Origin: Candidatus Multivorans sp.
GTDB taxonomy: Bacteria > Acidobacteriota > Thermoanaerobaculia > Multivoradales > Multivoraceae
Reading direction: 5' to 3'
Assembly: GCA_965247095.1 (NCBI GenBank)
Contig: OZ251997.1
Span: forward strand, 1,184,001 to 1,248,000
DNA: 64,000 nt
Below are positions 3,409 through 20,555 of the stretch, in pieces. The translations under genes were made by a program, and so were the position numbers. Below the pieces are notes generated by a model. That model ran no database searches. It saw only the letters and a list, made by a program, of their open reading frames with translations, and was not told where the DNA came from. Each line of letters opens with the position of its first letter. Within the stretch, counting starts at the first letter, position 1.

Positions 3409-3434
3409 GGGCGGTCGCCAGTATATTGAGTGGC

Positions 3435-4193
3435 ATGGCACCGCTGCTTGCGCTCGACACCGGCTCGGTCATCGTCAGCGTGGCGGTCGGCGAGCGGGAC
3501 CGGTTCGAAGTGCTGTCCGCGCCCCAGGGCCGTTCGTCGCGCGAGCTGATCGCGATGATCGACGAGCTCCTGACCCGCGCCGGCATCAAGCCGCGGGATC
3601 TGTCGGGCATCGGGGCCGCTCGCGGACCGGGCAGCTTCACCGGCCTGCGCGTGGGACTGGCGACCGCGCTGGGGCTCCATCAGGCCTCGGGCGTCAGGGC
3701 GGGCGGCGCATCCACGTTCGAGATCCTGGCCGCCGACTACTTCGAGCGCGTCGAGAATGGCGCGACGGAGGTGGTGGCCGTCATCGACGCCCTCCGTGAA
3801 CGCTGGTACACCCAGCCCATGCGACTGGCTGAGAACGGCAGGGTCGAAGCCGCCGGCCCGCCGGAAATCAAGGATCGCGCCGATCTCGTCCACGCCCGGC
3901 TGCCGCTCGTCGGACACGGCGTCTCCCAGCTTCCCACTTCGGCGGGAGCGATCGAGCCGTCCGAACTGGCGCCGACCCTGCTGCGTCTCATGGCGGACGG
4001 CGCCCTCGGCTGGGATGGCGGAGCACTGACCGAGCCGCTCTACCTGCGCTCGCCGGCCACCAGTCCGTCCACTCGCCCGCCCGGTAGCCCGAGACCGAAT
4101 CGGCGTCGCCGCCGCGCCCAAGCTTCCGGCCTCATCCGAGACTCCCGCGGCACGACACGTGGTCCCGGTGGAGATCCGCCGAGCTCGACCTGA
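3435..4193 (+). CDS. tsaB: tRNA threonylcarbamoyladenosine biosynthesis protein TsaB
   Basis: LLALDTGS start, GPGSFTGLRVG motif, EPLYLR near the C-terminus; long low-complexity tail. Confidence 0.92.
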   Translation: MAPLLALDTGSVIVSVAVGERDRFEVLSAPQGRSSRELIAMIDELLTRAGIKPRDLSGIGAARGPGSFTGLRVGLATALGLHQASGVRAGGASTFEILAADYFERVENGATEVVAVIDALRERWYTQPMRLAENGRVEAAGPPEIKDRADLVHARLPLVGHGVSQLPTSAGAIEPSELAPTLLRLMADGALGWDGGALTEPLYLRSPATSPSTRPPGSPRPNRRRRRAQASGLIRDSRGTTRGPGGDPPSST

Positions 4194-4198
4194 TCGGG

Positions 4199-5711
4199 AG
4201 CGTAGTCCCATTCAGAGATGAGCCTGAAGGTGGCTTCTTCGAGAGTTGTGCCGAGAGAGCGGCGGGGCGGGTTTCAGGGCTGGTGATCGAAGCGAAGCGG
4301 AGATCAGCACCAGGGACCAACGGTAGCGCGGGGACCGCGAGCCGCGGTCGAGTTGCACGAAGTGGGTGGTGTGAGGCGCGAGAGACGGGGGCGGTTTAGT
4401 CATGCGACGGTTGCATAGCGGCGGTGGATTTCGGCGAACAGTGCGACGAGGGCGTCGTTGACGGCGCTGGCCGCGGTGAGGTCGTCGAGTGCCAGGGCCT
4501 GCTGGTCGAGCTGCTCGAAGGTGACGCCGGGTCGCAGGCAGAGGGCGGCGCCGTCGAGCGACTTCAGCTTGAGGTAGGTCGTGGTGACGTTGTCGAAGGG
4601 GTAGGTCTTTCGCTTGCGACCATTGGCGTCTGTCGTCTCGACGGGGAAGTGGCAGGGCCGGTGGTAGTTGAGGAACGGAGCGAGCGCGTCGCGCAGGAAG
4701 TCGTTGACGAGTGCGGCATGACGCCGGGGAATGTGGTCGTAGCCGAGGTACCGCCGCACCACCGAGGCGTTCTTGCTCTCGACCAGGGCGTTGTCGTTGC
4801 AGCGCCTCGGGCGGGACTTGGTGAACTCCTCGATGTGCAGCTTGCGCAGCAGCGCGGCCACCCGGTGGTTGATGTACTCGGAGCCGTTGTCGGCGTGGAA
4901 GCCGCGGATGATGAAGGGGAAAGCCTCGATCGACCCTTCCAGGGCCGGAACCAGGAAACGCTCCGAAATGCCCTCTACAGCGGCCACGAACTCGTACTGC
5001 GTGACCTCGTCCACAAGATTGATCTCGTACAGACCCTTCTCCCCGTCCAGGTCGCCCTGATGGACCGAATCCACTCGCAGAAAGCCCGGCCGACCCGCGG
5101 GATGAGGCTTGCGGCGCTCCCCGATGCGTACCTGCGTCGACCGCGTCCTGGCCACCGTCAGGCGACGGCGCCGGTACGCTGTCGACTGGCGAAGCCGGTA
5201 CAGATGGCTGTTCGAGAGCCCCGCCAGACGCTCGAACCGCACATCCCCGAACACCGCGTACTGGCGCTGCATCATGCGCCGAGTGACCGCGCCGCACAGA
5301 CCGCCAAGGGTCTCGTCCACCTCGGCCAGCAGACCGATGTCCGCCTTCGTGTAGCGCCGGGGAAACGGACGCTTCGGACCCCGGCGCCGATCCTCGATGC
5401 GCCCCGTATCCCGGTACTGAGAGATCAACCGCGCGATCTGCGCCCGACTGAACCCCGTCACCTTGACCAGGAAGCGCCGCACCAGACCCTTGTCGGGCCT
5501 CGACAGTCGAAAGTAGCGCGAACGCACCAGAACCCGCCGCACAAAATCGTACGCATGGGCCCGCTCACGAAGCGGAAGTCGACCGGCGCGCTGCCGACCA
5601 TGAAGTCGCGGACCTCGTCGAGGGTCCGCAGCCGTTCGATATCGAGTCGCAAGGTCATCCTCCAATGATCCCCAACCCACTCTCAGGCTCATCTCTCGAG
5701 GGATTGACGCC
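4199..5711 (-). mobile_element. IS element with integrase-core (rve-like) DDE transposase, ISNCY/IS481-like
   Basis: Ends share the core GAGATGAGCCTGA in inverted orientation (~4215-4227; TCAGGCTCATCTC at 5683-5695) and enclose the transposase. Confidence 0.8.
4400..5658 (-). pseudogene. DDE transposase, frameshifted near 5565
   Basis: N-terminus MTLRLDIERLRTLDEVRDF... is in one frame and ERAHAYDFV...VDSVHQGD...FHADNGSEY...NDNALVESKN in another; one missing base would join them. Confidence 0.8.
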
Positions 5712-5719
5712 GCTCCTGT

Positions 5720-5755
5720 CATGGGACAAGCATGGGACAAGTATGGGACAAGGCT
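5720..5755 (+). repeat. Three tandem copies of ATGGGACAAG (11-bp period) ending in GCT; resembles the transposon end at 20451-20468
   Basis: cATGGGACAAG cATGGGACAAG tATGGGACAAGgct read directly from the sequence. Confidence 0.9.
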
Positions 5756-5760
5756 GTCGA

Positions 5761-5789
5761 TTGACAGTCGGCTGGGAGCCCCCTATGAT
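5761..5789 (+). promoter_or_regulatory. Sigma70-type promoter of tRNA-Asn
   Basis: TTGACA (5761-5766), 17-bp spacer, TATGAT (5784-5789). Confidence 0.8.
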
Positions 5790-5835
5790 TGGGGAGCCTG
5801 TCGCCTCCGCTGTTAGCTGGAGCCGGCGGGGTTCT

Positions 5836-5910
5836 TCCTCGGTAGCTCAACGGTAGAGCGTTCGGCTGTTAACCGAAATGTTGGGCGTTCGAATCGCTCC
5901 CGAGGAGCCA
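5836..5910 (+). tRNA. tRNA-Asn (GTT)
   Basis: Acceptor stem TCCTCGG/CCGAGGA, D-arm AGCTCAACGGTAGAGC, anticodon arm TTCGG-CTGTTAA-CCGAA, T-loop TTCGAAT, discriminator G, encoded CCA. Confidence 0.96.
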
Positions 5911-6230
5911 AAGTTCGGGGCACGGAACAAGTGGTCGACGCTGGTCAAGGTGACCGCCTACCTTGGTTGATTTACGCCAAGTGGTCCACCTCGGCGTTGA
6001 GGGAAAGCGATTCGAGGTAACCCTATGTCCAGATCAACACCTCAAGTTTGTGCGGCCGTGCTGTCGTACCCGCCTCGCATGAGCCAGTCGACCCGGCCGA
6101 GGCCGGATGCCGAAGCGGGCCGGTCCCACCCGGCGGCCCACAGGGACGGCGCTCTCGCTCCTAGTCCACCGGCGGGGCAGTTTGCCGAGAGCCATCCCCC
6201 CCCACCCGCCGCCGTCGCGGCCCGGGGAGC

Positions 6231-6620
6231 GTGCGGGTGTTGGCCGCCGGTGCCTGTCTGGCTTGGCTCGCCTGGCCGACCGAGGCTTTCGCGCAGAATA
6301 CACTGTCCATCGTCTCCATTGCCGTCGATGACGAGGTCACCGCCTCGGAGAAGTTGGCCGGGTTCGACATCGTTGGCCACACGGGCAACCAGGGCAACAT
6401 AGCTGTCAAGTTGACCTTCGGCACGGAGGAGTGGAACACGACCTCCTCCGCGACCGCGTCCGAGGGAATCCACTGGTGGTCGGCGAGGGTGCCGTCCGAT
6501 GCGAGCTACATTACTGACGGAGACCAGACCGTAGACGCGGAGGCCACTATTGGCGCGTTTACCCTGAAGCATGATAGGGACTTTGACGCGGATCTGACGT
6601 TGCCGCTGACAGTAGACCTA
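6231..6620 (+). pseudogene. N-terminal fragment of a secreted/surface protein truncated by an IS
   Basis: Signal peptide MRVLAAGACLAWLAWPTEAFA|Q followed by an acidic beta-rich Ig-like segment; protein-like sequence stops at the IS end near 6618. Confidence 0.6.
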
Positions 6621-8083
6621 GCAGCCCGTGGCAGAAGTGGCTTCGTGGCCCGAGGGGGCGGACCAGTCAGATGTGTGGTTCTGCAGGGGACCAGCCGCGG
6701 CGGTAGATGTTGGATAGCAAGTGGATCGGATTTGCGGGCCGGCTCAGGAAGATCCGCCGGTATAGCGCGACGAGTCGCGGCCAGACCCCTCCATGTTGAC
6801 CGGCGAGGGCGTTGCGGGCTGCCGAAGCGCGGCCCTGGAGGCTGCGCGGCGTGCCGACTCCCACAAGCTCGCGCATCAGGAGCCCGAGGTTGCAGCCGCA
6901 GGCATGAATGTAGACGCGCTTGAGGACGTTCGAGCGACCGCGCAGGTGCAGCCGCCGCATGCCGCCGGTCTCGTACTGGTGAGCGAAAGGCCGTTCAAGC
7001 CGTTCCCCTCGCTGGCGCTGCATCCGCTTGCCCCGATTCCCCCGGATCCGCCGACGGTTCGCGTACACGATGGCCTGCAGGTCCTTCTTGCCCTTCCAAC
7101 GACGACGACCACGGTCCGGCTCCGCGATGTAGCTGCGAAGGCCCAACTCGTCGATGGAGGCGAGAACAGCGTTGCTGTGGTAGCCCTTGTCGGCAACGAT
7201 CTCCTGGATCGCGGCATCGTCCCCGGTCGCCGATTCCACCTGCTCGAAGGTCTCCTCCAGCGTCTCGCCGAACGACTCCGTGTCCCCCTTCGATCCGCCC
7301 TGAACCGTCACTCCCAGGATCGTCCCGGACAAAAGGTCCACCGCCTGCTCCGCCTTGTACGCGAAGTGCGTGCGGCCGTCCTTCATCTTCGTGATCTCCG
7401 CCTCCGGGTCGTGCGGATTCTCCCACTCCGCGTTCGACAGCTTCTTCTTGCGCTTGCGGTCGAAACGGACCAACTCGGTCCGCGTCGGCGTCTCCACACC
7501 CGACGCCTCCGCCAAACCCCGCACGAACTCGTCGTAGTCCTCCCCACTGTCAAGACGCACGATGCTCCGCAACGCCGCGTTCGCCTCCAGAGTCGTCGCG
7601 TCCACGCCCACCGTCTTGCCCGACACCAGACCCGACTCCGCCAGACGACCAAGCACCCACGAGAACACTCTGCTGTGAGTCTCCACGTCGACCAGCCGAC
7701 GCGTACGCGAAATGGTCGAATGATCCGGCGCCGACTCGGTCACGCCCAACCCCAGGAACCGACGAATGCTCAGAGAGTCCTGAGCACGCCACGCGATCCC
7801 GCGCTCCGAGTCCAGACCCTCGAAGTAACCCACCAGCAGCAGACGAAAGTACCGGCCCGGACAAAGACTCGGACGGCCCATCCGCTCCGCATAGAACTGC
7901 GCGCACTCCGACTCCACCAACTCGTCGAAACCGCCGGCTTCCAGAATGCCGTTCAACCGCTCATGGAACGGGTGACCAGCGCTGCGAGGAAGATCCGCTC
8001 CCGCCACCCAAAGCGCAGCGTGCGCCCTCCTGGCGAGCCTCATGCCGGTAATGGCAAGGTATTCAATTGACCACGGAAGCTAA
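6618..8083 (-). mobile_element. IS1182/IS5-like insertion sequence
   Basis: Imperfect ends CAGCCCGTGG and CCACGGAAG with CTAG/CTAA flanks around the transposase; boundaries approximate. Confidence 0.65.
6667..8043 (-). CDS. Transposase (DUF772 + DDE; IS1182/IS5-like)
   Basis: GRPSL, PDHSTISRTR, GVDATTLEANA, VADKGY, ERPFAH motifs. Confidence 0.88.
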   Translation of the reverse strand: MRLARRAHAALWVAGADLPRSAGHPFHERLNGILEAGGFDELVESECAQFYAERMGRPSLCPGRYFRLLLVGYFEGLDSERGIAWRAQDSLSIRRFLGLGVTESAPDHSTISRTRRLVDVETHSRVFSWVLGRLAESGLVSGKTVGVDATTLEANAALRSIVRLDSGEDYDEFVRGLAEASGVETPTRTELVRFDRKRKKKLSNAEWENPHDPEAEITKMKDGRTHFAYKAEQAVDLLSGTILGVTVQGGSKGDTESFGETLEETFEQVESATGDDAAIQEIVADKGYHSNAVLASIDELGLRSYIAEPDRGRRRWKGKKDLQAIVYANRRRIRGNRGKRMQRQRGERLERPFAHQYETGGMRRLHLRGRSNVLKRVYIHACGCNLGLLMRELVGVGTPRSLQGRASAARNALAGQHGGVWPRLVALYRRIFLSRPANPIHLLSNIYRRGWSPAEPHI

Positions 8084-8086
8084 TTT

Positions 8087-9430
8087 GGGTCTTCAGGGTT
8101 ATGTGTGGGCTGGGGGTTGCCGGAATCGGGCGGATCCGATCGGTCGTAGACTGGCGGCATGAAGAGTGCAAGGACGTTCGAGAAGCTTCTGGGGATCAAG
8201 TCGCCTTGGCGTGTGCGCGAGGTGGTGGTTCGGCTGGACGAGGCGAATCCGCTTCGCCGGGGTCCGGTAGTTGGCGGCACGGTGGAGATCCACGTGGAGC
8301 ATGCCGGCGCCACGCGGTGTCCGGAGTGCGGCTCCCCGTGTCCAGGCTACGACAGCAGGCATCGCAGGTGGCGTCATCTGGACACGATGCAGCACCAGAC
8401 GCGGGTCCATGCGGCGGTGCCGCGAGTCCGTTGTGCTGAGCACGGCATACGGCAGTTGAGGGTGCCCTGGGCAGACGAGGGTTCGCGTTTCACCGCGCTG
8501 TTCGAGGCGGAGGTCATCGAGTGGCTGCGCGAGGCGAGCGTGCATGCTGTGGCTTGCCGGATGGGTATGAGCTGGGATCAGGCGGTCGGCATTCTGCGCC
8601 GGGCGGTGAAGCGCGGTCTGGCGCGGCAGAAGCGACGGTCGCCTCGCGCGATCGGGGTCGACGAGACGTCGTTCCAGAAACGGCACAAGTACGTGACGGT
8701 GGTGAACGACCTGGAGCGCCGCGAGGTGGCGCATGTGGCCGACGGTCGCGGTCGGTCGGCGATCGACGGCTACTTCGAGGAGTTGGGTGAGACGGCATGC
8801 GCCGGCATCGAGCAGGTGGCGATGGACATGTGGCCGGCGTACATCTCTTCGGTGGAGGCGCATACGGACGCCGATATCGTGTTCGACAAGTTCCACATCG
8901 TCCAGCACTTGAACCACGCCGTGGACCTGGTTCGGCGTGCCGAGCAGCGGGAGTTGCTCAAAGCAGGCGATTCGGGTCTGAAGCGGAGCCGCTACTTGTG
9001 GCTGACGAGACGCGGACGGATGACGGCATCGCAGCGGCGTCGTTTCACCCTTCTTCGCGCGAGCCACCTGCGTGTGGCCCGTGCCTGGGCGATCAAGGAG
9101 ATGGCGATGTCGTTGTGGGGCTACTCCCGCCGTGGCTGGGCCAAGCGCAGGTGGAAGCGCTGGTACAGTTGGGCCATCCGCAGCCGCCTGGAGCCGATCA
9201 GGCGGGTGACGAAGATGATCAGGGACCATTGGGAGGGCGTCATCAACGCCGCCACGTCCAACATCACCAATGCACGCGCCGAGAGCATCAACGCGAAGAT
9301 CCAGTGGATCAAGCAGAAGGCGCATGGCTATCGAAACCGGGCCAACTTCCGACTCGCAATCCACTTCCATCTCGGCGGACTCGACCTCTACCCCGATTCA
9401 CTCTCGTTCCACACGAAACCCTGAAGAGCC
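8087..9430 (+). mobile_element. ISL3-family insertion sequence
   Basis: IRL GGGTCTTCAGGGTTATGTGTGG (8087-8108); IRR reverse complement GGCTCTTCAGGGTTTCGTGTGG (9409-9430); no target duplication seen. Confidence 0.9.
8159..9424 (+). CDS. ISL3-family transposase
   Basis: CPECG zinc finger, IGVDETSF, AMDMWPAY, FDKFHIV, TNARAESIN. Confidence 0.95.
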   Translation: MKSARTFEKLLGIKSPWRVREVVVRLDEANPLRRGPVVGGTVEIHVEHAGATRCPECGSPCPGYDSRHRRWRHLDTMQHQTRVHAAVPRVRCAEHGIRQLRVPWADEGSRFTALFEAEVIEWLREASVHAVACRMGMSWDQAVGILRRAVKRGLARQKRRSPRAIGVDETSFQKRHKYVTVVNDLERREVAHVADGRGRSAIDGYFEELGETACAGIEQVAMDMWPAYISSVEAHTDADIVFDKFHIVQHLNHAVDLVRRAEQRELLKAGDSGLKRSRYLWLTRRGRMTASQRRRFTLLRASHLRVARAWAIKEMAMSLWGYSRRGWAKRRWKRWYSWAIRSRLEPIRRVTKMIRDHWEGVINAATSNITNARAESINAKIQWIKQKAHGYRNRANFRLAIHFHLGGLDLYPDSLSFHTKP

Positions 9431-9588
9431 CGGACAAGAAGGCAGATACGAGATCCAGTACAACGGCTGAAACAGAACAAGGAGGGCCCCCAACTTTGTT
9501 GGCGCGCCAATCTGCGAAGAAAAATCCTGACCGGACCGCTCATCGTAGGGGTCGTCGCGCATTGGACCGCTCGGATATTCAGGGCGTG

Positions 9589-12500
9589 ATGCGGAGCAAA
9601 GACCCGCGGCTGACAATCATCGGCGTATTCCTCGCCGCCGCGACGCTGATGCTTGGCTTTCCGGCGCCAGCGCACGCCCAGACCGTGCTCGTGAGCAACA
9701 CGGGCCAATCTAACGCCGGTCAGACACCCGTAGCTCCCAGTGATCATGCTCAGGGGTTCACCACGGGCCAGAATACACTGGGCTACTCCTTGACAAGTAT
9801 CGAGTTGGGCGTAGGCGTGGCTTCGGGTAGCGGAACCCTGACGGTAACAGTGAGGGGTGACGACGGATCGGGCGATCCGGGGGGCAATACGCTATATACC
9901 TTGAACAACCCGGCCAACGTGGCGGCGGGACTCCGAACGTTCACCGCCCCTGCCGGTGCCAGTCTGAATGCAAACACCCAATACTTCGTGCAAATGGTTT
10001 TCGCGCCTAACGGCAGTGCTAGTTACCCCCAATGGGACAATACGACATCTAGCCTCCAAGATTCCGGTTCGGCCATCGGGTGGAGCATCGGGAATGAACG
10101 CCACACGCGCACCCCGGGCTCAACCGGGTGGGGTTCGACTAATTTCACTGTGTTACAAATCAGGGTCAATGGGCAAATTCGCGCCCCGGCCGCCCCAATG
10201 AACCTCTCGGCCACGCCGGATGACGGCCAGGTCACTCTGTCCTGGACCAATCCGGCCAACAACACCATCACGAAGTACCAGTATCGCCGGAAAACAGACA
10301 CGGGGACCTACGGCAGCTGGACCGACATCCCCAACAGCGGTGACACCACGACCAGCTACACTGTGACCGGCCTGACCAACGGCACCGAGTACACGTTCGC
10401 GGTGCGGGCGGTGAACGCTGGCGGTAACGGCGCGGCATCCACCGTGACCGCCACGCCGGCACTGGCCCCGACCGCCCCGACGAATCTCGAGGCCGAGGTG
10501 GGTGACAGACGGATCGGTCTTACCTGGGACGATCCGGGCGACAGCACAATCGACGAGTACGAGTACAGCACCGACGGTGGCTCCTTCAGCGTCATCAGCG
10601 GCAGCGATGACGCCACGACCAGCTACACCGTGACCGGTCTGACCAACGGCACCCAGTACACGTTTGCGGTGCGTGCGGTGAATAGTACCGATGACGGCGT
10701 GGAATCCACCGTGACGGCCATTCCACTGTGGCCCGCGCCGACCGGTTTGGTGGCGACGGCGGGCCAGGGTCGGGTCACCCTGGAGTGGAATAACGGCCAC
10801 TCCGGCATCGGCGATTATTTTACCTATGCCAGAGGCAGCGACATCGTGGATAGAACCAAATTCCTTCCTCGCAGACCGGGTTCGACGACGACCGACATCG
10901 TTTATCCACTGACCAACGGCGTCCTGTACACCTTCAGCGTGCGGGCGCTGCACGGCAAGGAATCACCCACCGTGACGGCCAGGCCGGTGTCCATGCCGGC
11001 CCCGGAGAACCTCACGGCCACCGCGGGTGATGACCGCCAGACCACTCTGTCCTGGAGCGATCCGGGCAACGACACGATCTACAAGTACCAGGTCAGCATG
11101 GACGGTGGCACGACCTTCACCGACATCAGCGGCAGCAGCAAGAGCACTACCACCACTACCGTGACCGGTCTGACCAACGGCACCGGGTACACGCTGGCGG
11201 TGCGCGGGGTGAACTGGTGGGGTTACGGCGCGGCATCCACCGCGACTGCCACGCCACTGTGGCCCGCGCCGACCAATTTGGTGGCGACGCCGGACAGCAG
11301 CCGGGTCTTCCTGGAGTGGGACAGGAACCCCGGGATCACCGATTATCGGGTAGACGTCTCGGACGGCAGCTCGGTGAGCGTGTCGGCCGGTTCGGGGTCG
11401 AAGACAATCGCTGCCATTGACTCGTTGGCCAATGGCACCGCTTACACCTTCACGGTGCTGGCGACACAGGACTCCGCACAGGACTCCGCGGACAGCAGTT
11501 GGCCAGCCGCCGTGGATGCCACGCCGATGGTGGTCTCGCCGGACGCCCCGACGAACCTCTCGGCCACGCCGAGTAACGGCCAGGTCACTCTGTCCTGGGA
11601 CGATCCGGGCAACAACACAATCACCAAGTACCAGGTCAGCAGGGACGGTGGCACGTCCTTCACCAACATCAGCGACAGCGGTGCGAGCACTACCACCACC
11701 ACCGTGACCGGACTGACCAACGGCATCCTGTACACGTTTGCGGTGCGTGCCGAGAACGCTTCCGGTCGCGGCTTGGCAGCCACCACGACCGCCACGCCGG
11801 TCAACGACGCCCCCACGGCTTCCGCCAAGACGGTGTCCACGGACGAGGACACGGCGTACACCTTTAAGGGGGCGGACTTCGGCTTCACGAGCGTCAAATC
11901 CGGCGCCACGCTGAACCACATGAAGATCACTGCACTGCCCGGGGCGGACAAGGGGACGCTGTCGGTTGGCGGCACGGCCATCACCGGTGTCACCACGCCC
12001 AGGCAGGTGACAAAGACCGGGCTCGATGCCGGCAATCTCACGTACACCCCGCCGGCCAACGCCAACGGCGCCGCTTTCGCGACGTTCGCCTTCAAGGTCA
12101 ATGACGGCGTGGCCGATAGCGACATGGCATACACCATCACCATTAACGTGAATGCCGTGAACGACCCCCTCACGGGTTCCGATAAGACGGTGTCCACGGA
12201 CGAGGACACGGCGTACATCTTTAAGGAGGCGGACTTCGCCTTCTCGGACGTCGACGCCGGCGCCACGCTGGGGCACGTGAAGATCACCTCACTGCCCGGG
12301 TCGAACCAGGGGACGCTGTCGGTTGGCGACACACCCATCGCCAGCGTCAGCCCACCCCTCCAGGTGACGAAGGACGAGCTCGGCACTCTCACGTACACTC
12401 CGCCAACCAACGCCTTCGGCGCCGCTTTCGCGACGTTCAACTTCAAGGTCAGTGACGGCACGGACGACAGCGACAAGGCATACACCATCACCATTGACGT

Positions 12501-15500
12501 GAATGCCGTGAACGACCCGCCGGTGGCGGTGACTGACAACGCCGAGACCAGCGAGGACATTCCCGTCGTCATTGGCGTGTTGGAAAACGACTCGGACGTG
12601 GACCCGGGGACTGCCCTCCGCGTGGTCGAGGTGGGGTTTCCGACGGCCCCAACTAAGGGGACCGCCGAGATCGACCCCAACAACACCACCGTCACCTATA
12701 CGCCCAACGCCAACGTCACCGGCACCGACACGTTTAGCTACGCCGTCACGGACGGGTTCGACACGAGCAACGTAGAGGTGGCCGTGGAGATCCTTGGCAG
12801 CGGCACCAACGCGAACCTGTCGAACCTGACCCTCTCGTCGGGGACGCTGATGCCGGATTTCGCCGCGACGACCATGAGCTACGAGGTCGACGTGGAGGCC
12901 CCTACAGACAGTGTGAGGGTGACGCCGACGACGGCAGACGCCCAAGCAACGGTGACGGTGAACGGCACGCCGGTGGACAGTGGAACTGCCAGCGGCGACA
13001 TTGCCCTGACCGAGAATAACGTGACCCGCATCACGGTGGCGGTGACGGCCGCGGACGGGACGCCCACCCAGACCACCACCATCGACGTGACCCGACCGCT
13101 CAGCGACAACGCGAACCTGTCAGGACTGACCATCTCATCGGGGACGCTGACGCCGGTGTTCGCCGTGGGCACCACGGATTATACGGTCGACGTCGGGAAC
13201 GCCGTGGACAGTGTGACGGTGACGCCGGCCACGGAGCACGCCGGCGCGACGGTGACGGTCAACGGCACGCCGGTTGCCAGTGGGAGTGCGAGCGGCGACA
13301 TCGCCCTGATCGAGGGTGACACGACCACCATCGCAGTCGTAGTGACGGCCGCGGACGGGGTGACCACCAAGGCCTACGCCATCGAGATCCGACGAGCCGC
13401 GCTGAGCGATGACGCCAGCCCGACGGTGGAGATCACGACGGAGGCTGCGGCCCCGGTAACGGGAGCGTTCAGGGTAACGATCACCTTTAGCGAGGAGGTG
13501 ACGGGTTTCCAGCAGAGCGAGATCACGGTGACGAATGGGACGGTAAGCAGCTTCAGCGGGTCGGGGACGAGCTACACAGTCGAGATCACCCCCTCGGAGA
13601 ACGGTGAGGTGACCGTAGAGGTTGGTGCGGACGTGGCCGAGGACGAGGCCGGCAACGGCAACCGGGCGGCGGAGCCTCTGGTGATCGAGGCGGATCTGAC
13701 GGGACCGGAAGTGGAGATCACCAGCGAGGCCATGGGAGCGGTGAACGGCGCGTTCGAGGTGACGATCACCTTTAGTGATGCGGTGACGGGTTTCGAGCAG
13801 AGCGAGATCACGGTGACGAATGGGACGGTAAGCAGCTTCAGCGGGTCGGGGACGAGCTACACAGTCGAGATCACCCCCTCGGAGAACGGTGAGGTGACCG
13901 TAGAGGTTGGTGCGGACGTGGCCGAGGACGAGGCCGGCAACGGCAACCGGGCGGCGGAGCCTCTGGTGATCGAGGCGGATCTGATGGGACCGGAAGTGGA
14001 GATCACCAGCGAGGCCACGGGACCGGTGAGCGGCGCATTCGAGGTGACCATCCGTTTCGACGAGTCGACGGAGGGCTTTGAACTGGAAGATGTCGAGGTC
14101 AGCAACGGGACGGCGTCGAACTTCAACGAGGTGTCCTCACGGACTTACACGGTGACGATCACGCCGGACGCAACAGGTGAGGTCAGGGTGGAAGTGGCCG
14201 CCGGAGTAGCCGAGGACAAGTTCGGCAATGCCAACGAGGCAGCGGAGCCGTTCATCATCGAGGTAGACCTGGAGCGGCCGCAGGTAACGATCGCAGGCCC
14301 TACGGAGCCGGTGGGAATGGCGGGGTTCGAAGTGACGATCACCTTCTCGGAGCCGGTGGAGGGTTTTGAGTCGGAAGATATCCAGGTCAGCAACGCGAAG
14401 GTCGCCGAGTTCACCGAGGTGTCATCGAGTGAGTATCAAGCCACGATCAAGCCGGCGAAGGCGGGGCGGACGGTCGTTGTGGAAGTGCCCGAGGCCGTTG
14501 CCGAGGACGTGGCGGGCAACGGCAATGAGGCGGCGGAGCCGTTCGAGGTGGAGGCGAAGCTGGCGGTGAGCTACGAGCAGGAGAGCTACACGGCACTCGA
14601 AGGCGGGGAGGCGGTGACGGTGACGGTGAAGCTGAGCCAAGCCGGGGACGCGGAGTTGGCGATCCCGATCCGGGTGAGGCGTCCGGAGACGACGGAAGTC
14701 GGGGACTACACGGTCGAGGGATTGGAAGATTGGAATGCCGAGGGGGGCACCGGAACGCTCATCTTCGCGGCGGGGGAAGCGGAACAGGCATTGAGCATTG
14801 CAGCCGACCATGATGGGGACGGGGACGACGAGACGATAGAGCTTGGCTTTGGAGAGTTGCCGGAGATAGCAATGGCAGGGGAACCGGCCATAGCGACGGT
14901 GACGCTCGAGGACAAGGGGCTGGTGGAGCTTGAGGTGAGCTTTGGGCAGGCTGCGTACCAGATCAAGGAAGGCCAGCAGGCCGACATTGAGGTGACCGTC
15001 TCACCGGCCGCGGACCGGCGGGTGGAAGTGTCGCTCGTGGTGGCGCTCGAGGCAGGGACGACGCCCGAAGACTTTAGCGGGGTGCCGTCGACGTTGGTGT
15101 TCGAGGAAGGCGAGAGTCAGGGGACGATTTCGATAGCGGTCCTGGGGGACGAAGTGAACGATCCCGGGGAGGGGATTGTGCTGAGCTTGGGCGAGTTACC
15201 GGAGGCGGTCAACGAAGGAGAGATTTCACAGACACGAGTGAACTTCACGCAGCAGCGGACGGCGGAGCAGTTCTCGCGCTCCCTGGAGGGGATGTTGGCG
15301 GTGGTCGCGCGCTCGATGGGAGAGAGCGCGCAGACGGCGATCCAGGGTCGGTTTGAGCGGCATCGTCAGTGGAGTCGTCTCGGGTCATCGGATGGCTCGA
15401 TGCCGACACCGGAGCCGGGGAGCGGCGATGGTGCCGCGGCTCTCGGCCCCGGCGAATCGGAGCGGGTAGACGGCGGGGGCGCCGGCGACAGAGGAGCAGC

Positions 15501-17010
15501 AGGCTCGGTGGTGCAGAGCGCTTGGGGCGCAGCCAAGACCGGAGCAGCAACGGGATCGGGTAGGAACTCGGAGAATCGGGAGACAGGCAAGCGAGGATCG
15601 TGGCTGCGGAATGTCTCGCAGGGTTTGTTGGGGAACCTGGTCGGCTCCGGCCAGAGCGACTCGGGCTTCTCTACCGGTCTTGGTTTGGGGCCAGGTGGGA
15701 CAGGCTCCGGTCAGGATCGATTCCAGGGTTCTGGGACAAGGGACGCGTCCCTGAGACCGGGGTCGGCTCAGTTGTCCAGGCAGAGGGATCAAGCTCTCAA
15801 CCTGTCGGGGTTGTCCTTCGAGACATCCCGAGGAGAGCAGGAGCAGGAGAAGAGCTGGTTACCGGTATTGTGGGGGCAGGGGGATCTGCAGCATTTCAAC
15901 GGGGACTTGACACGGCTCGGGATGGACTATCGGGGAGGTCTCGAAGCGGCTCACGTCGGGTTGGACCTCTATGCCAGCGAACAGATGCTGGCCGGCGTGT
16001 CGTTCATGCACAGTTGGGGGGACCTGGATTACACAGACGATGGGATAGATGGGGTGCTAGAGAGTCGCATGAACACGGTGCACCCCTATCTGTACTGGCA
16101 GCCGAACGAACGGGTGAGCGTGTGGAGCATTGGAGGCTTGGGCCGGGGTCAGGTGGATATCGACGAGCCGGGCCGGACGCACGACTTCGACGCCGACTTT
16201 CGGATGTTCGCTGGTGGAGTGAGGGCGGCGTTGAGGCGGCGTGGCAACAGTGAATGGGGTCTGCGAGCGGATGCCTTCTCGGTGCAACTGGGGACCGACG
16301 CGTTGGAGGACATCGCCAAGGTGAGCGGTGAAGCTCACCGGGGCCGGTTGATGCTGGAATGGGTGCACGACAGGGAGCTGTCAGTGGGGAGATCATTGAG
16401 CCTGACGGCGGCGGCCGGAGGTCGCTTCGACGGCGGCGATGCGGAACGGGGCAGCGGCGTGGAGACCGGTTTCCGTCTGGGGTACCTGGATGCGACCAGT
16501 GGCCTGGACGTGGCGCTGCACGGCCGGGTGCTCGTGGTGCACGAAAGTGACTACCAGGACTGGGGAGCGGGCGTGCAGGCGAGCTGGGATCCGGGAGAAA
16601 GGCAGCGCGGTCTAAGGGTGTCCCTGAACTCCTCGCTGGGCCAGGACGGCGACGGCGGAACGACGCTGTGGGACAACGCGGACGTTGTGATACGCGAGGT
16701 GGGTGTGGGAGCGCTGGGCCTGGGTTCGCCGTATCGGATGGAAGGTGAGGTGGCCTACGGCGGCATGAAGGCGCGGGGCGTGCCTGGTTTACTAGAGCCC
16801 TATGGCCGCGTGCGATGGGCCGGAGAAGGTCGGGAGCTGAGCTTGGGCACCCAGTGGAGCCTGCCGATTGGCTCGCAGCAGGCCCTGCCATTGGTGTTGG
16901 AGTTGGAGTTGGAAGGCCTGATGCGCGAGAACGGAACGGGTTCGTCCGATCAGGCGGTCTTGCTGCGCATGTCGATCCCCTTGGGCGGCTCGCGGGACGT
17001 CATGCCTTGA
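9589..17010 (+). CDS. Giant (~2470 aa) multidomain surface protein/adhesin with probable C-terminal autotransporter-like beta-barrel
   Basis: Signal peptide ...APAHA|Q; N-terminal VLVSNTGQ...AQGFTTG domain; 6 FN3 repeats (GLTNG.Y.F.VRA.N); 3 cadherin/Big-like repeats (VNDAP..TDEDT); 2 NANLS cadherin-like beta sandwiches; 4 VTITFSE Ig repeats; 2 Calx-beta-like domains; aromatic amphipathic beta-strand C-terminus. Confidence 0.85.
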   Translation: MRSKDPRLTIIGVFLAAATLMLGFPAPAHAQTVLVSNTGQSNAGQTPVAPSDHAQGFTTGQNTLGYSLTSIELGVGVASGSGTLTVTVRGDDGSGDPGGNTLYTLNNPANVAAGLRTFTAPAGASLNANTQYFVQMVFAPNGSASYPQWDNTTSSLQDSGSAIGWSIGNERHTRTPGSTGWGSTNFTVLQIRVNGQIRAPAAPMNLSATPDDGQVTLSWTNPANNTITKYQYRRKTDTGTYGSWTDIPNSGDTTTSYTVTGLTNGTEYTFAVRAVNAGGNGAASTVTATPALAPTAPTNLEAEVGDRRIGLTWDDPGDSTIDEYEYSTDGGSFSVISGSDDATTSYTVTGLTNGTQYTFAVRAVNSTDDGVESTVTAIPLWPAPTGLVATAGQGRVTLEWNNGHSGIGDYFTYARGSDIVDRTKFLPRRPGSTTTDIVYPLTNGVLYTFSVRALHGKESPTVTARPVSMPAPENLTATAGDDRQTTLSWSDPGNDTIYKYQVSMDGGTTFTDISGSSKSTTTTTVTGLTNGTGYTLAVRGVNWWGYGAASTATATPLWPAPTNLVATPDSSRVFLEWDRNPGITDYRVDVSDGSSVSVSAGSGSKTIAAIDSLANGTAYTFTVLATQDSAQDSADSSWPAAVDATPMVVSPDAPTNLSATPSNGQVTLSWDDPGNNTITKYQVSRDGGTSFTNISDSGASTTTTTVTGLTNGILYTFAVRAENASGRGLAATTTATPVNDAPTASAKTVSTDEDTAYTFKGADFGFTSVKSGATLNHMKITALPGADKGTLSVGGTAITGVTTPRQVTKTGLDAGNLTYTPPANANGAAFATFAFKVNDGVADSDMAYTITINVNAVNDPLTGSDKTVSTDEDTAYIFKEADFAFSDVDAGATLGHVKITSLPGSNQGTLSVGDTPIASVSPPLQVTKDELGTLTYTPPTNAFGAAFATFNFKVSDGTDDSDKAYTITIDVNAVNDPPVAVTDNAETSEDIPVVIGVLENDSDVDPGTALRVVEVGFPTAPTKGTAEIDPNNTTVTYTPNANVTGTDTFSYAVTDGFDTSNVEVAVEILGSGTNANLSNLTLSSGTLMPDFAATTMSYEVDVEAPTDSVRVTPTTADAQATVTVNGTPVDSGTASGDIALTENNVTRITVAVTAADGTPTQTTTIDVTRPLSDNANLSGLTISSGTLTPVFAVGTTDYTVDVGNAVDSVTVTPATEHAGATVTVNGTPVASGSASGDIALIEGDTTTIAVVVTAADGVTTKAYAIEIRRAALSDDASPTVEITTEAAAPVTGAFRVTITFSEEVTGFQQSEITVTNGTVSSFSGSGTSYTVEITPSENGEVTVEVGADVAEDEAGNGNRAAEPLVIEADLTGPEVEITSEAMGAVNGAFEVTITFSDAVTGFEQSEITVTNGTVSSFSGSGTSYTVEITPSENGEVTVEVGADVAEDEAGNGNRAAEPLVIEADLMGPEVEITSEATGPVSGAFEVTIRFDESTEGFELEDVEVSNGTASNFNEVSSRTYTVTITPDATGEVRVEVAAGVAEDKFGNANEAAEPFIIEVDLERPQVTIAGPTEPVGMAGFEVTITFSEPVEGFESEDIQVSNAKVAEFTEVSSSEYQATIKPAKAGRTVVVEVPEAVAEDVAGNGNEAAEPFEVEAKLAVSYEQESYTALEGGEAVTVTVKLSQAGDAELAIPIRVRRPETTEVGDYTVEGLEDWNAEGGTGTLIFAAGEAEQALSIAADHDGDGDDETIELGFGELPEIAMAGEPAIATVTLEDKGLVELEVSFGQAAYQIKEGQQADIEVTVSPAADRRVEVSLVVALEAGTTPEDFSGVPSTLVFEEGESQGTISIAVLGDEVNDPGEGIVLSLGELPEAVNEGEISQTRVNFTQQRTAEQFSRSLEGMLAVVARSMGESAQTAIQGRFERHRQWSRLGSSDGSMPTPEPGSGDGAAALGPGESERVDGGGAGDRGAAGSVVQSAWGAAKTGAATGSGRNSENRETGKRGSWLRNVSQGLLGNLVGSGQSDSGFSTGLGLGPGGTGSGQDRFQGSGTRDASLRPGSAQLSRQRDQALNLSGLSFETSRGEQEQEKSWLPVLWGQGDLQHFNGDLTRLGMDYRGGLEAAHVGLDLYASEQMLAGVSFMHSWGDLDYTDDGIDGVLESRMNTVHPYLYWQPNERVSVWSIGGLGRGQVDIDEPGRTHDFDADFRMFAGGVRAALRRRGNSEWGLRADAFSVQLGTDALEDIAKVSGEAHRGRLMLEWVHDRELSVGRSLSLTAAAGGRFDGGDAERGSGVETGFRLGYLDATSGLDVALHGRVLVVHESDYQDWGAGVQASWDPGERQRGLRVSLNSSLGQDGDGGTTLWDNADVVIREVGVGALGLGSPYRMEGEVAYGGMKARGVPGLLEPYGRVRWAGEGRELSLGTQWSLPIGSQQALPLVLELELEGLMRENGTGSSDQAVLLRMSIPLGGSRDVMP
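13498..14017 (+). repeat. Near-identical intragenic duplication (235 bp, 285-bp period)
   Basis: 13498-13732 vs 13783-14017 differ at 2 positions by eye. Confidence 0.9.
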
Positions 17011-17622
17011 GGCGGGCCGCCCTAGGGACCCGGCGCCGCGACCCGCAAGGCAGATGCCGGCGCCTGCGGCCACTCTAGAATTCCCCGCCGAGCCGGTCGG
17101 CGCCCGACAACAGGATGCGCCGGCCAGGGCGCCACAACTCCATGAAATATAGTGGCTTATTCTCCACGGCCTCACGGTGAGTCGCGGTGAAGAGGGTAGA
17201 GCAAGAGGAGCCATTGTGTCCGGCTTTGACGGTGACGCGGGATAGCCTCTCGTGCTCGACCGTGGCGACGTAATAGAGATGGTCGACGTTTCCGGGGAGT
17301 TCCTGTCACCGAGCCGACGGGGCGCCGTTCACCGACGTCTGAGTGTGGCCCGCCTCTACGAGGAGGCGGTGCGGCGAAGCGAGGCGGCGATCGCCGCCGA
17401 AGGGCCGTTGGTGGCCTCGACCGGGGACCACACCGGGCGTTCGCCAAACGACCGGTTCCTGGTACGTCGGTCGCCTTCGGCGGACGCCGTTGACTGGGGG
17501 CCGGTCAACTGGAGGCATCGCTCGGAAACTGAGCCACCCAGCGCGCGGAAAGTGATCCACCCTCGGCCCTGACACCGGTAGCTTGGTCTTGTCTAGAGGA
17601 CCAAGGCGATCGGAGGAAGGAC

Positions 17623-19065
17623 TTGCTGAGGATGGATCAAGTGCATGTTATTCGGCACCAGGTGCTGGTGGAGGGTCGGAGCCAACGCTCGGTGGCCCGC
17701 GAGCACGGGGTGAGCCGCAATACGGTGCGCAAGTACATGGATCAGAGCGCGCCGCGGCGGGTGGAGAGAAAGCCGCGGCGCCGCTGGGTGACGGAGCGGG
17801 TGGCGCCGCGTCTGGAGGAGTTGCTGCGCACGTGGTCTCGCCGGACGACGGCGAAGCAGCGTTTGACGGCTACTCGTCTGCATCGCCAGTTGCTGGAGGA
17901 GGGCTACGAGGTCGGGATCACGACGGTGCGCAGCTACGTACGGGAGTGGAAGCGCCAGCGGCAGGAGACGTTCATCCCGCTGGTGCACCGTGCCGGCGAG
18001 TGTGGCCAGGTGGACTTCTTCGAGGTGACGGTGGAGGAGGACGGTGTGGCGCACCGGGTGTGGAAGTTCCTGCTGCACCTGCCGTACTCGGGCCGTTCGT
18101 TCGTGTGGCTGTACGACCGCTGCGACCAAGTGGCGTTCCTCGACGGCCATGTACGGGCGTTCGCTCACTTCGGCGGCGTGCCGCTGCGGCTGGTCTACGA
18201 CAATCTGAGTGCGGCGGTGCGTCGCCGGGTGGGCGGCGAGCGTCAGTTGACGGCTCGGTTCCAGGCTCTGGTGAGCCACTACCTGTTCGAGCCTTGCTTC
18301 GCCCGTCCCGGCGAGGGGCACGACAAGGGCAGTGTGGAGGCGCGCGGCAAGGGAATCCGTCTGGCGCACATGAGTCCGGTGCCTCAAGGGCGCAGTCTGG
18401 AGGAGATCGCGCGGTGCGTGCTGGCTTCGGTCGACATGGCGCACGGTAACCGTGCGCGGTGGGAGGAGGAGCAAGCAGCTCTGCGCGAGCTGCCGCCTAC
18501 CGCGTTCGAGGCCAGAAAGATGAGGATCGCGCGTGTGTCGCGCCAGGCGACGGTGCAGTTGTGCGGTGCGACCTACTCGGTTCCCTCGCGGTGGAAGAGC
18601 CTCCAGGTCCATGCCCTCGTCGGCGCCAAGGAGATCACCTTCACCTGCCGCAGCGAGGAGTACCGCTGCGACCTGGTGCGGCCGGGCCAGCGTCTGGTGC
18701 GCTACGCGCACTACTTCGAGGAGTTGTCCCGTAAGCCTCAGGCGGTGCGGCAGGTGGCCCCGGAGTTACTCGCAGAGCTCGGTCCGGCGTACCGCAAGCT
18801 ATGGAGCATGCTGGAGTTGCGGCACGGCGCGTTGGAGACGGCGAGGCTCTTCGCCAAGCTGCTGAGCGTGGTTGTGGACCACGGCAGCGAGGAGGTCGCC
18901 TCCGCTCTTGAGGAAGCCTTGGCCGCCGGCCGCTTCGACCTGCTGGGACTTGTCGAGCGGCGCTCCGCGCCCCGGATCGAGGTGCCCGAGACGCTCCGTC
19001 GCCACGAGATCGAGAGCGCCAGAGCCGCCGACTTCGACGTGCTGCTTCAGGAGGCGGCATCGTGA
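17623..19065 (+). CDS. istA: IS21 transposase IstA
   Basis: N-terminal HTH (SRNTVRKY), QVDF, YDNL, DKGSVE, YSVP. Confidence 0.95.
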
Positions 19066-19814
19066 GTCGGGCCGCGCGCCGAGCCGTCATCAAAGAGGGC
19101 CTCAAGACGCTCAAGATGCCTTCCGTGCTGCGCGACTACGAGCAGCGGGCGCGTCAGGCCCAGGACGCGCAATGGGACTACGAGGACTACCTCTGGCAAC
19201 TGCTCGAAGCCGAGATCCGGGATCGTGAGGCCCGCACCGTCGAGCGCCGGCTGCGGGCGGCCCGCTTCCCCGACCACAAGACGCTCGACCAGATCGACTT
19301 CGAGGCGCTGCAAGGCGTCTCCAAACCGAAGCTGCGGGAGTTGGCCGCCTGCGACTACATCGACCGCGGCGACGATGTCGTCCTGGTCGGACCGATCGGC
19401 ACCGGCAAGACGCATCTCGCCATCGCGCTGGGCATCGAGGCTGCCAAGCGCCGCCGCCGGGTCTGGTTCCGCAAGGCCTCCGACCTCGTCCGCGACCTGA
19501 TCGAGGCCCGTGACCAGCGGGAGCTGGGCCGCCTCCAGCAGCGGCTTCAGCGGGTCGACCTCCTGATCTGCGACGAGCTCGGCTTCGTGCCCTTCGACCG
19601 CGTCGGCGGCGAACTGCTCTTCAACGTCTTTGCCGACCGCTACGAGCGCCGCTCGACCATCGTCACCTCCAACCTCGCCTTCTCCGAATGGGTCCGCGTC
19701 TTCGGCGACGAGAAGCTGACCACGGCCCTGCTCGACCGCCTCTCCCACCACGCCCACATCCTCGCCACCAAGGGCTCCTCCTATCGGACCCGGCTCTCGA
19801 GAAGCACCTCGTGA
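19062..19814 (+). CDS. istB: IS21 helper ATPase IstB
   Basis: [33 protein letters not shown]. Confidence 0.96.
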
Positions 19815-20555
19815 ATACCGACCCCACCACGCGCAACCGGATCGCCGCGACACCGCCGCTGGCCGAGCCGCTACCGCGGCCGGCTGCGGAAGCTGCCGGC
19901 GCCGCGGAAAACGGCAGACCGTTTCCCGCACCGCCTTGGAAAACCGGCAGACCGGTTTCCCACAGCTACCGCAGCCCGTACGGCTACTGACTCAAAGGGG
20001 ACCGACGAGAGAAGATTCGCGTACACTCAACACGGCCGAGGTGGCTCACTTTCCAAACGTTGGGTGGCTCACTTTCCGAGCGTTGCCAACAGTCAACCAA
20101 GCGCTCGAGCCGGAGCACTTGGACCGGCTTCACCGGAAGATGCGGGCCGCTGCGGCGGAGCGGGATCTCTTCGTGTTCGACGGCTTCGCCGGCGCCGATC
20201 TCTCTTGCCGGTTGAAGGTTCGCGTGATCAGCGAGCGGGCGTGGCACAGTCTGTTCGCGCGCAACATGTTCCTGCGCGCGCCGCATGCCGCCGCGTTGAA
20301 CGGCTCTAAGCCCGACTTCACGGTCGTCGACATCCCCAGCGTCCTGGCCGACCCGGAGACGGACGGCACCAACAGCACGACCTTCATCGTTCTCGACCTG
20401 GAGTGGCATCTGACCCTGATCGGCGGCAGCAGCCGCTCCTTCAGGCTCATCTGTCATGGGACAAGGCTTCGGGGTCGGGTCACACCTCCAAGCTGCTAGG
20501 CTGTTGCCGAGACTTGCCGAACCCAGGGACAACAAAGAAGGGAGGCGCGTACCGA

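Follow-up and report, generated by a model that had tools for sequence, protein, structure and literature searches.

A 16.3-kb insertion resembling a degenerate compound transposon in a Candidatus Multivorans genome

Results

A 16.3-kb segment separates tsaB from the psd-pssA gene pair in a genome of Candidatus Multivorans (Acidobacteriota), a metagenome-assembled chromosome that consists of a single contig of 4.62 Mb. The stretch of DNA analysed here, hereafter the window, is 64,000 nucleotides long and corresponds to bases 1184001-1248000 of that genome; the segment occupies window positions 4199-20468 and is a species-specific insertion between tsaB and a small open reading frame (ORF) located upstream of psd-pssA (Table 1). 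It consists of one full insertion sequence (IS), called copy A below, of 14.7 kb of passenger DNA, and of a 37-bp stub that represents the right end of a second copy of the same IS. The reading that I favour, and that I hold to be evenly poised between right and wrong, is that these parts form a degenerate compound transposon that moved to its present location as one unit.

Boundaries and insertion site

Both outer boundaries of the segment are ends of the IS, in inverted orientation, as in a compound transposon. The left end, AGCGTAGTCCCATTCAGAGATGAGCCTGAAGG (4199-4230), has an imperfect inverted partner at 20438-20468, with a matching core of 15 nt, and TCGGG stands immediately outside each of them, at 4194-4198 and 20469-20473, just as the initial annotation of this DNA had read the sequence. 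In this genome two random 5-mers are identical with a probability of 0.0021. The length of the repeat is typical of the IS: the simple copies in the same genome are flanked by 5-bp duplications in three cases out of three (ACCCG, ACCTC and TCACC), a check that the annotation itself had proposed. A census of 43 distinct full-length copies, from this and other genomes, gave an exact 5-bp duplication around 28 copies, 31 when a shift of the end by up to 2 nt was allowed, and no duplication around 12.

The uninterrupted site is present in relatives. In 10 of the 11 relatives' loci that were fetched, the 3' end of tsaB lies at most about 130 bp from the region upstream of the small ORF and psd-pssA, while the eleventh locus matches the right flank only. 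In the closest relative (genome G016), whose flanks are 87-92% identical, the site reads TGA-TCCGGG within the sequence CCTGATCCGGGCTTTCGACCTGCTCCAAGCTG; aligned to it, the window reads CCTGATCGGG, then the 16.3 kb, then TCGGGGTCGGGTCACACCTCCAAGCTG. The segment is thus an insertion at TGA-TCGGG, as originally proposed, into a site that is uninterrupted in these 10 loci. The ancestral gene order that went with this proposal is recovered as well, but the label ydcH given to the small ORF is not: the 100-residue ORF at 20563-20865 has no match to a Pfam or NCBIfam family at E-values up to 0.01, and it is conserved beside psd-pssA in relatives.

Two different right ends

The canonical length of the IS, deduced from genome comparison, is 1556 bp, and its right end is the one beside the transposase start. 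The inner part of this end comprises the box TCAGGCTCATCT (IS 1494-1505), 14 bases ending in TTGAC (1506-1519) and the 9-mer GCCGCTCCT (1520-1528), and the outer part comprises a second copy of the box TCAGGCTCATCT (1529-1540) followed by a 16-base tip, GTCATGGGACAAGGCT (1541-1556). The stub at the far side of the cargo matches this canonical end with an E-value of 1.3e-14. It follows position 173 of PF01293 in the truncated pckA gene (at 20430), where the native pckA reads on, which agrees with the earlier description of a solo distal end that cuts off pckA. The terminal 12-bp box is common to both working ends and is missing from the inner right end of copy A, whose variant tip (5718-5755) is unique among all the sequence examined. 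If the segment moved as one unit, the inner end was probably skipped for want of this box, and it is best regarded as a probable non-working end. The annotation had placed the inner end at 5683-5711, but that interval contains the subterminal box only and the true tip is at 5755. The cargo is flanked by one full IS and a 37-bp remnant, not by two IS copies.

The formation of such a stub from a full copy is documented in the family. At one site, genome G054 carries a full IS with the duplication GCATA, and at the orthologous site genome G046 carries only the last 40 bases of the IS, 15 bp of the left flank having been lost.

Copy A follows the canonical sequence through position 1528 and the stub starts at position 1520, so that GCCGCTCCT is found on either side of the 14.7 kb (5709-5717 and 20432-20440). 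A 9-bp direct repeat around 5718-20431 is also what would be seen if a transposon of another family, one that makes 9-bp duplications, had carried the 14.7 kb into the right end of a plain IS. I consider such an event very improbable, since the ends of 5718-20431 share no inverted repeat (as judged from the 25 longest of 86 pairs and from the end sequences) and neither of them is transposon-like: on the left an outward-facing IS tip gives way to chromosomal tRNA promoter DNA, and on the right the end falls on an internal codon of pckA.

A foreign copy of the tRNA-Asn-pckA locus as cargo

The outer parts of the cargo are homologous to the native tRNA-Asn-pckA locus of the same genome (tRNA-Asn at 3332241-3332315, intact pckA at 3332422-3333819). 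Homology starts at 5758, three bases past the IS tip, with 86% identity, resumes at 17205 with 80% identity and reaches 88% over 20092-20430. The truncated gene, pckA', stops at GGCAGC(A), where IS sequence begins; the native pckA goes on with GAGTACGCC. The initial description of a tRNA-Asn gene with a promoter stands, with the tRNA at 5836-5910 and the promoter-like site at 5761-5789. Between this tRNA and its native counterpart there are two differences, which appear to compensate each other across one stem pair.

Searches for the donor of this DNA, and for the unit as a whole, covered 42 genomes of the genus, 151 genomes of the order and two metagenome scans. The adjacency of tRNA-Asn and pckA is kept in 40 of the 41 other genomes of the genus, which are 71-83% identical to the cargo over the spacer and the start of pckA; in none of the 41 is the tRNA-Asn flank more than 86% identical to the cargo. 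Given this divergence from all loci of the genus, the cargo would derive from a different lineage, within the genus or close to it, and would not be a recent duplicate of the resident locus. To judge from its sequence the cargo is foreign or old, being 80-88% identical to the native locus and containing an ISL3 element that is unique in the genome. The GC content of the cargo is 65.0%, that of the genome 67.7%.

Table 1. Features of the insertion and its flanks (window positions)
Feature	Position	Strand	Remarks
tsaB-like gene, left flank	3426-4193	+	Pfam TsaD (PF00814), E 2e-16; stop TGA immediately 5' of TCGGG
Left TCGGG	4194-4198		5-bp target duplication
IS copy A, 1557 bp	4199-5755	-	follows canonical IS 1-1528 up to window 5717
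Copy A transposase gene	about 4400-5659	-	within IS copy A
Inner right end, subterminal part	5683-5717		box TCAGGCTCATCT 5683-5694; stretch ending in TTGAC 5695-5708; GCCGCTCCT 5709-5717 (IS 1520-1528)
Inner right end, variant tip	5718-5755		second 12-bp box missing; CATGGGACAAG three times
GTCGA	5756-5760		between IS tip and tRNA promoter TTGACA; place of the 5-bp duplication in simple copies
Promoter-like TTGACA-17-TATGAT	5761-5789	+	upstream of tRNA-Asn; 11/12 matches
Second tRNA-Asn(GTT) gene	5836-5910	+	two differences from native in the T-arm region, G to C and C to G
11.3-kb island at the tRNA 3' end	5911-17204	+	adhesin gene and two ISs only
Adhesin gene, 5' part	6025-6616	+	paralog residues 13-41 and 53-194, in two different frames
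IS1182-like element in adhesin gene	6617-8015	-	99.2% identical copy at genome 1286352-1287750
ISL3 element	8087-9430	+	22-bp inverted ends; no 8-bp duplication; sole copy in this genome
Remaining adhesin frame, 2525 codons	9433-17010	+	fn3, Big_12, cadherin-like and Calx-beta repeats; separated from start
pckA', first piece	17327-17509	+	PEPCK_ATP 3-70; 80% identical to native, upstream spacer included
IS21-family element	17510-20091	+	istA-like and istB-like genes; interrupts pckA'; flanked by GTCAAC; 91% identity with further copies in the genome
pckA', second piece	20092-20431	+	PEPCK_ATP (PF01293) 61-173; 88% identical to native
Solo right end, 37 bp	20432-20468		37/37 identical to IS 1520-1556; keeps 12-bp box and 16-bp tip; starts with second GCCGCTCCT
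Right TCGGG	20469-20473		5-bp target duplication
Right flank: 100-residue ORF, psd, pssA	20563-22344	+	100-residue ORF without family match

An unclassified IS family with a target preference and many right-end stubs

The transposase of the IS scores 50.6 bits against the NCBIfam model for IS481 (NF033577, cut-off 224), 34.6 bits against that for IS3 (NF033516, cut-off 160) and 22.2 bits against Pfam rve (cut-off 32.6). No ISNCY model is listed at E-values up to 0.001, there is no match to IS1380 beside the weak rve, IS481 and IS3 matches, and a search of solved structures by the transposase sequence returned no match. Its relatives number in the thousands and are unnamed, some of them bearing the label 'integrase' or 'InsO family'. 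The annotation had described the IS as a poorly classified ISNCY/IS481-like DDE element; a poorly classified transposase of the rve type it is, but the ISNCY part of the description finds no match. The same genome also contains eight copies of a sister IS family, 69-70% identical over about 1.26 kb, at 756469, 1860396, 2043327, 2168280, 2646244, 3923247, 4037666 and 4239656.

The insertion sites point to a target preference. In the census of 43 copies, the five bases that follow the duplication on the side of the right end are TTGAC in 6 cases and TGGAC in 4, where 5-mer frequencies in the genome would predict 0.024 and 0.053 cases; insertion is thus preferentially 5 bp upstream of boxes resembling the -35 element of promoters. 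One site in genome G003 was used twice and reads, in order, right-end remnant, GGACC, full IS, GGACC, TTGAC. The junction at the inner end of copy A, where the cargo begins just past the IS tip with TTGACA at 5761 after GTCGA, is a typical target of the family. A literature search for ISs that target -35 boxes found no paper on the subject within its scope.

Right ends outnumber left ends. In the five genomes in which ends were counted, the ratio of right to left ends is 64:39 (G003 24:14, G046 14:6, G056 12:6, G055 3:2, G054 11:11), and the 20 right-end loci that were fetched (L038-L057) comprise 5 full copies and 15 partial copies in which the right end is retained. The starts of three short stubs fall within IS 1513-1522, beside the internal TTGAC: L053 at about 1514, L051, the G046 stub described above, at about 1517-1522, and the stub of the window at 1520. 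Such clustering could be due to a hot spot of breakage or to a pseudo-end on the inner side. A more specific proposal, which I regard as unlikely, is that the right end is nested, with a cut near position 1520 that goes with the inner box, and the true tip that goes with the outer one; a working footprint of 37-44 bp would then stay behind whenever excision or breakage took place at the inner site, and such footprints, more numerous than left ends in several genomes, would turn full copies located upstream into cargo transposons. A different variant of the right end is also recurrent: about 35 bp between direct repeats (the box plus TGGGA) are deleted, which fuses the inner box to the tip and gives CAGGCTCATCTCTCGTGGGACAAGGCT. 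It is found at about 6430-6470 of locus L145 (a G056 locus presented below) and at G046:C1:226274, G003:C1:2737207 and G056:C1:194446.

Copy A is a mosaic

The other close copies in the genome are B and C, 97.4% identical to copy A, and D, 91.9% identical. The differences from B and C are unevenly spread along copy A, with 34 in the first 400 alignment columns and 5 in the next 1100, so that the core (400-1528) is about 99.5% identical to B and C. Faster evolution of the first 400 bp was considered and rejected as the cause, because between species the divergence of this region is 2-3 times that of the core and here the ratio is about 19. The left end belongs to a lineage that is absent elsewhere in the genome and departs from B and C already at base 4; B and C are therefore no siblings of the element by which TCGGG was duplicated.

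The transposase genes of B, C and D are open (a single frame of 427 codons, 419 residues when counted from ATG, unlike the two ORFs with programmed frameshift of the IS3 family), and their products could act in trans. Copy A lacks, at 5564-5565, one base of an AA pair present in B, C and D, which breaks the frame at codon 31. At position 5564, all of the short-read depth (77.8, 112.9 and 151.4 in three runs, equivalent to about three copies) has one more base than the window; the deletion is therefore probably a consensus error, and the idea of a true frameshift was dropped.

Movement as one unit or capture by a resident IS

A different history would give the same picture. A plain 1556-bp IS would have resided at TCGGG, and foreign DNA carrying a related IS beside tRNA-Asn and pckA would have recombined into it, on the left through homology. 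The right joint, from pckA' to IS position 1520, would be due either to homology-facilitated illegitimate recombination or to a circle via the 9-37 bp of shared right-end sequence. I consider such a capture possible, on the doubtful side. It accounts for the outer duplication and for the ends equally well, and it makes immediate sense of the two GCCGCTCCT copies that bracket the 14.7 kb and of the end of canonical homology at position 1528. The mosaic break near position 400 could mark its left crossover, an indication that is ambiguous. According to one source (PMC6382021), the process is documented in transformable bacteria, with joints of 3-10 bp. On the other hand, with a crossover at position 400 the donor IS would have been 99.5% identical to B and C, yet the tRNA-pckA DNA that it brought is only 80-88% identical to the native locus; if there was no anchor of such length, recombination of the RecA type would have had very little homology to work with, 37 bp or 9 bp. 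The right joint would moreover have fallen by chance within the last 37 bp of the IS, an argument softened by the fact that only such cases are noticeable, and a plain IS at the site is absent from every genome searched.

A locus of genome G056 bears directly on this question. In locus L144 (G056:C1:504000-523000), 8.2 kb of cargo with adhesin-like fragments and an IS1182-like element lie between a full IS and an IS copy devoid of its first 124 bases, and CCCCC flanks the whole. Its cargo is a circular permutation of another locus of the same genome, L145 (G056:C1:188000-207000), made of the right flank of the latter followed by its left flank, joined at an 18-bp repeat, GGCCGAGACCGCCGGCGC, and the truncated IS copy of L144 and its neighbour are structurally identical to L145. 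As the IS copy of L145 has no left end, the left end of the full copy in L144 came from a resident IS. The simplest reading of L144 is thus recombination into a resident full copy of the IS, which makes it an example of capture within the genus. Three candidates for an IS-cargo-stub arrangement flanked by a duplication were judged from the end coordinates in the five genomes. The G056 locus is the only one whose flanks match, and CCCCC is of low complexity. A pair of ends in G003 (left end at 3194608, right end at 3226493) was rejected as a flanked unit since GGACC and GTAGA differ, as were two inverted left ends 8.2 kb apart on contig 2 of G046, flanked by AAAAC and CCAGA.

Several observations weigh against movement as one unit. 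Within the scope of the searches given above, neither a donor nor a conspecific empty site was found, nor the unit at a second location: exact matches to the stub junction, or to the junction between tip and tRNA, are absent from the metagenome contigs, the pattern of the latter junction occurs in 2 of the 42 genus genomes, namely this one and G003 at an unrelated site that shares the target motif only, and the 3' end of the adhesin gene lies beside pckA in none of the 41 other genomes. The core of copy A matches B and C at about 99.5% identity, far closer than the 80-88% between cargo and native locus, so that this reading needs gene conversion as an additional step. Conversion by B or C would naturally end where homology ends, at position 1528, and at the divergent left region. 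The overlap of 9 bp between the inner canonical sequence (to 1528) and the stub (from 1520) is as expected of a short-homology recombination into one IS. The G056 locus has the same outer look and is best explained by the product of a circle or duplication that recombined with a resident IS. Finally, the inner junctions (5717/5718 and 20431/20432) are bridged by no short-read contig among those listed. Of the transposition via a distant solo end that was initially claimed, the IS-end boundaries, the 5-bp duplication and the solo end in pckA are confirmed; movement as a single unit is an inference.

Support from short reads

The gap at the inner junctions also raises the question of an artefact, in which the long-read assembly would have wrongly joined two loci that contain the IS. 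The provenance of the sequence, a metagenome-assembled chromosome, is compatible with such an error, and so is the 1-bp deletion in the copy A transposase that short reads do not support; I nevertheless judge it most unlikely, for the following reasons. Four short-read runs were compared in the form of contigs, which report presence only; a single sample, possibly the one that yielded the genome, accounts for three of them. In these three runs, contigs extend over 3300-4336, across the left junction, and over 20441-21300, from the stub tip into the right flank, without a mismatch, so that the outer junctions show no sign of the misassembly against which the initial annotation had warned. The contigs listed for the unique part of the cargo (6264-6646, 8102-9372, 15348-16074 and 16557-17509 among them) have 0-4 differences, the first of these crossing the left junction of the IS1182-like element. 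Depths for the contig that contains the canonical GCCGCTCCT-TCAGG junction are 43, 57 and 107, against single-copy depths of about 23-31, 27-40 and 53-65; this roughly twofold depth fits a canonical end carried by B and C alone and not by copy A. In a chimera, moreover, the match between the two TCGGG sequences would be an odd coincidence, at the probability given above.

One contig of run X9, inside the multicopy IS1182-like element, has 24 differences. Run X13 contains the IS sequences and almost nothing of the tRNA and adhesin part. A joint from 5708 to 20432, examined as a possible excision product, was rejected because it is the canonical IS end of B and C.

The island and its broken adhesin gene

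Between the tRNA-Asn gene and the resumption of native homology, the cargo contains an island. The last nine bases of the tRNA, GAGGAGCCA, are found at 5902-5910 and again at 17205-17213, where homology to the native locus resumes, as in islands linked to tRNA genes. No integrase gene was seen between the repeats, which enclose only the adhesin gene, the IS1182-like element and the ISL3 element, and the island was not found elsewhere in the genomes searched.

The adhesin gene is broken: it is split by the IS1182-like and ISL3 elements and changes frame near its start, which matches the N-terminus of a paralog in two frames (6025-6111 and 6201-6626). Of the surface protein of about 2470 residues described in the initial annotation, there remains a frame of 2525 codons that is cut off from its start; the nested ISs that the annotation had mentioned are present, as IS1182-like, ISL3 and IS21 elements. 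Since a nearly identical sibling of the IS1182-like element exists in the genome, its insertion probably took place after arrival. It is separated by 71 bases from the ISL3 element, which is flanked by GCTAATTT (8079-8086) and CGGACAAG (9431-9438); the lack of an 8-bp duplication suggests an adjacent deletion or rearrangement inside the adhesin gene. The closest relatives of this ISL3 element in the 151 order genomes are at most 83% identical.

Paralogous adhesin genes are located at 3242615-3247915 and 2163688-2165682 of the genome. One of them is an open frame of 1763 codons, whose N-terminus and last 1170 residues (68.6% identical) match the gene of the cargo. ARAGORN predicts a 92-nt tRNA-Arg(CCG) at 15612-15703, inside the adhesin frame, which is probably a false positive; a normal tRNA-Arg(CCG) gene is present at genome position 3013077.

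Discussion

If the segment did move as a degenerate compound transposon, its history could be reconstructed as follows. In another member of the genus, the IS would have entered the tRNA-Asn promoter region 5 bp upstream of TTGACA, a site of the kind favoured by the family. A second copy would have inserted in the same orientation in pckA and later been cut down to its last 37 bases, and the terminal 12-bp box would have disappeared from the right end of the first copy. With the stub as the only partner remaining for the left end, the transposase would have moved everything in between to TGA-TCGGG, downstream of tsaB, with duplication of 5 bp. Later, the core of the IS would have been homogenised by gene conversion from the resident copies B and C, and the IS1182-like element would have inserted after arrival.

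The outcome has much in common with compound transposons that have a degenerate arm: outer IS ends, passenger DNA, a duplication of the length made by the IS and a site that is uninterrupted in relatives. It differs from them in that the second arm is reduced to 37 bp, the inner end of the full copy is damaged, the IS is an unclassified one of the rve type and there is no second copy to prove mobility. As with ISEcp1 units, a single IS is associated with downstream DNA, a distant right end and 5-bp direct repeats; in one report, such units are described with IRL, a deduced IRR1 and the repeats ACTCA, TAATA and TAAGA (PMC6061673). ISEcp1 is, by contrast, an IS1380 element that uses surrogate ends of weak similarity, while here a true end survives as a perfect remnant at the distal side and the transposase contains an rve domain.

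Homology-facilitated illegitimate recombination is reportedly the subject of work by de Vries and Wackernagel (2002) and by Prudhomme et al. (2002). The structure of the window resembles its products through the presence of an IS that may serve as anchor on one side and through an overlap of 9 bp. This overlap falls within the range of 3-10 bp documented in the source cited above (PMC6382021). The resemblance is limited, as the process is known from natural transformation experiments, and the mosaic break near position 400, a candidate for the crossover, is ambiguous.

With the IS481, IS3 and ISNCY groups the IS shares a DDE transposase with an rve core, a single ORF of 419 residues, terminal inverted repeats and a small target duplication, but its scores are far under the NCBIfam cut-offs, its rve score is below threshold and no ISNCY model matches. 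The adhesin segment, in turn, is like a tRNA-linked island in its position at the 3' end of tRNA-Asn and in the repeat of the last 9 tRNA bases that closes it; unlike such islands, it has no integrase gene seen between the repeats, its repeat is short and it occurs in no other genome searched.

The event is of a type already known, and what is fresher here is the unclassified IS family, with its bias towards -35-like targets and the abundance of its right-end stubs. The suggestion, made at the outset, that the segment could be a route for the spread of adhesins finds no support, because two ISs interrupt the broken adhesin gene and the cargo amounts to a decayed piece of a relative's tRNA-Asn-pckA locus. 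What the locus does show is a piece of core chromosome, comprising a tRNA gene with its promoter, an island and half of pckA, that landed between IS ends in the genome of a relative. A matching duplication around an IS-cargo-IS end arrangement is no proof, by itself, that the whole moved as a single unit, because recombination into a resident IS looks alike, as the G056 locus illustrates.

These elements belong to an uncultured Acidobacteriota lineage of the wastewater or sediment type whose mobile elements are barely described; the name 'Candidatus Multivorans' occurs in none of the papers listed by a literature search. An abundant and unclassified IS family that targets -35-like boxes and leaves an excess of right-end stubs may interest IS specialists more than the cargo itself. 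Should the right end prove to be nested as outlined above, targeting of -35 boxes would repeatedly place chromosomal segments led by a promoter under mobilisation.

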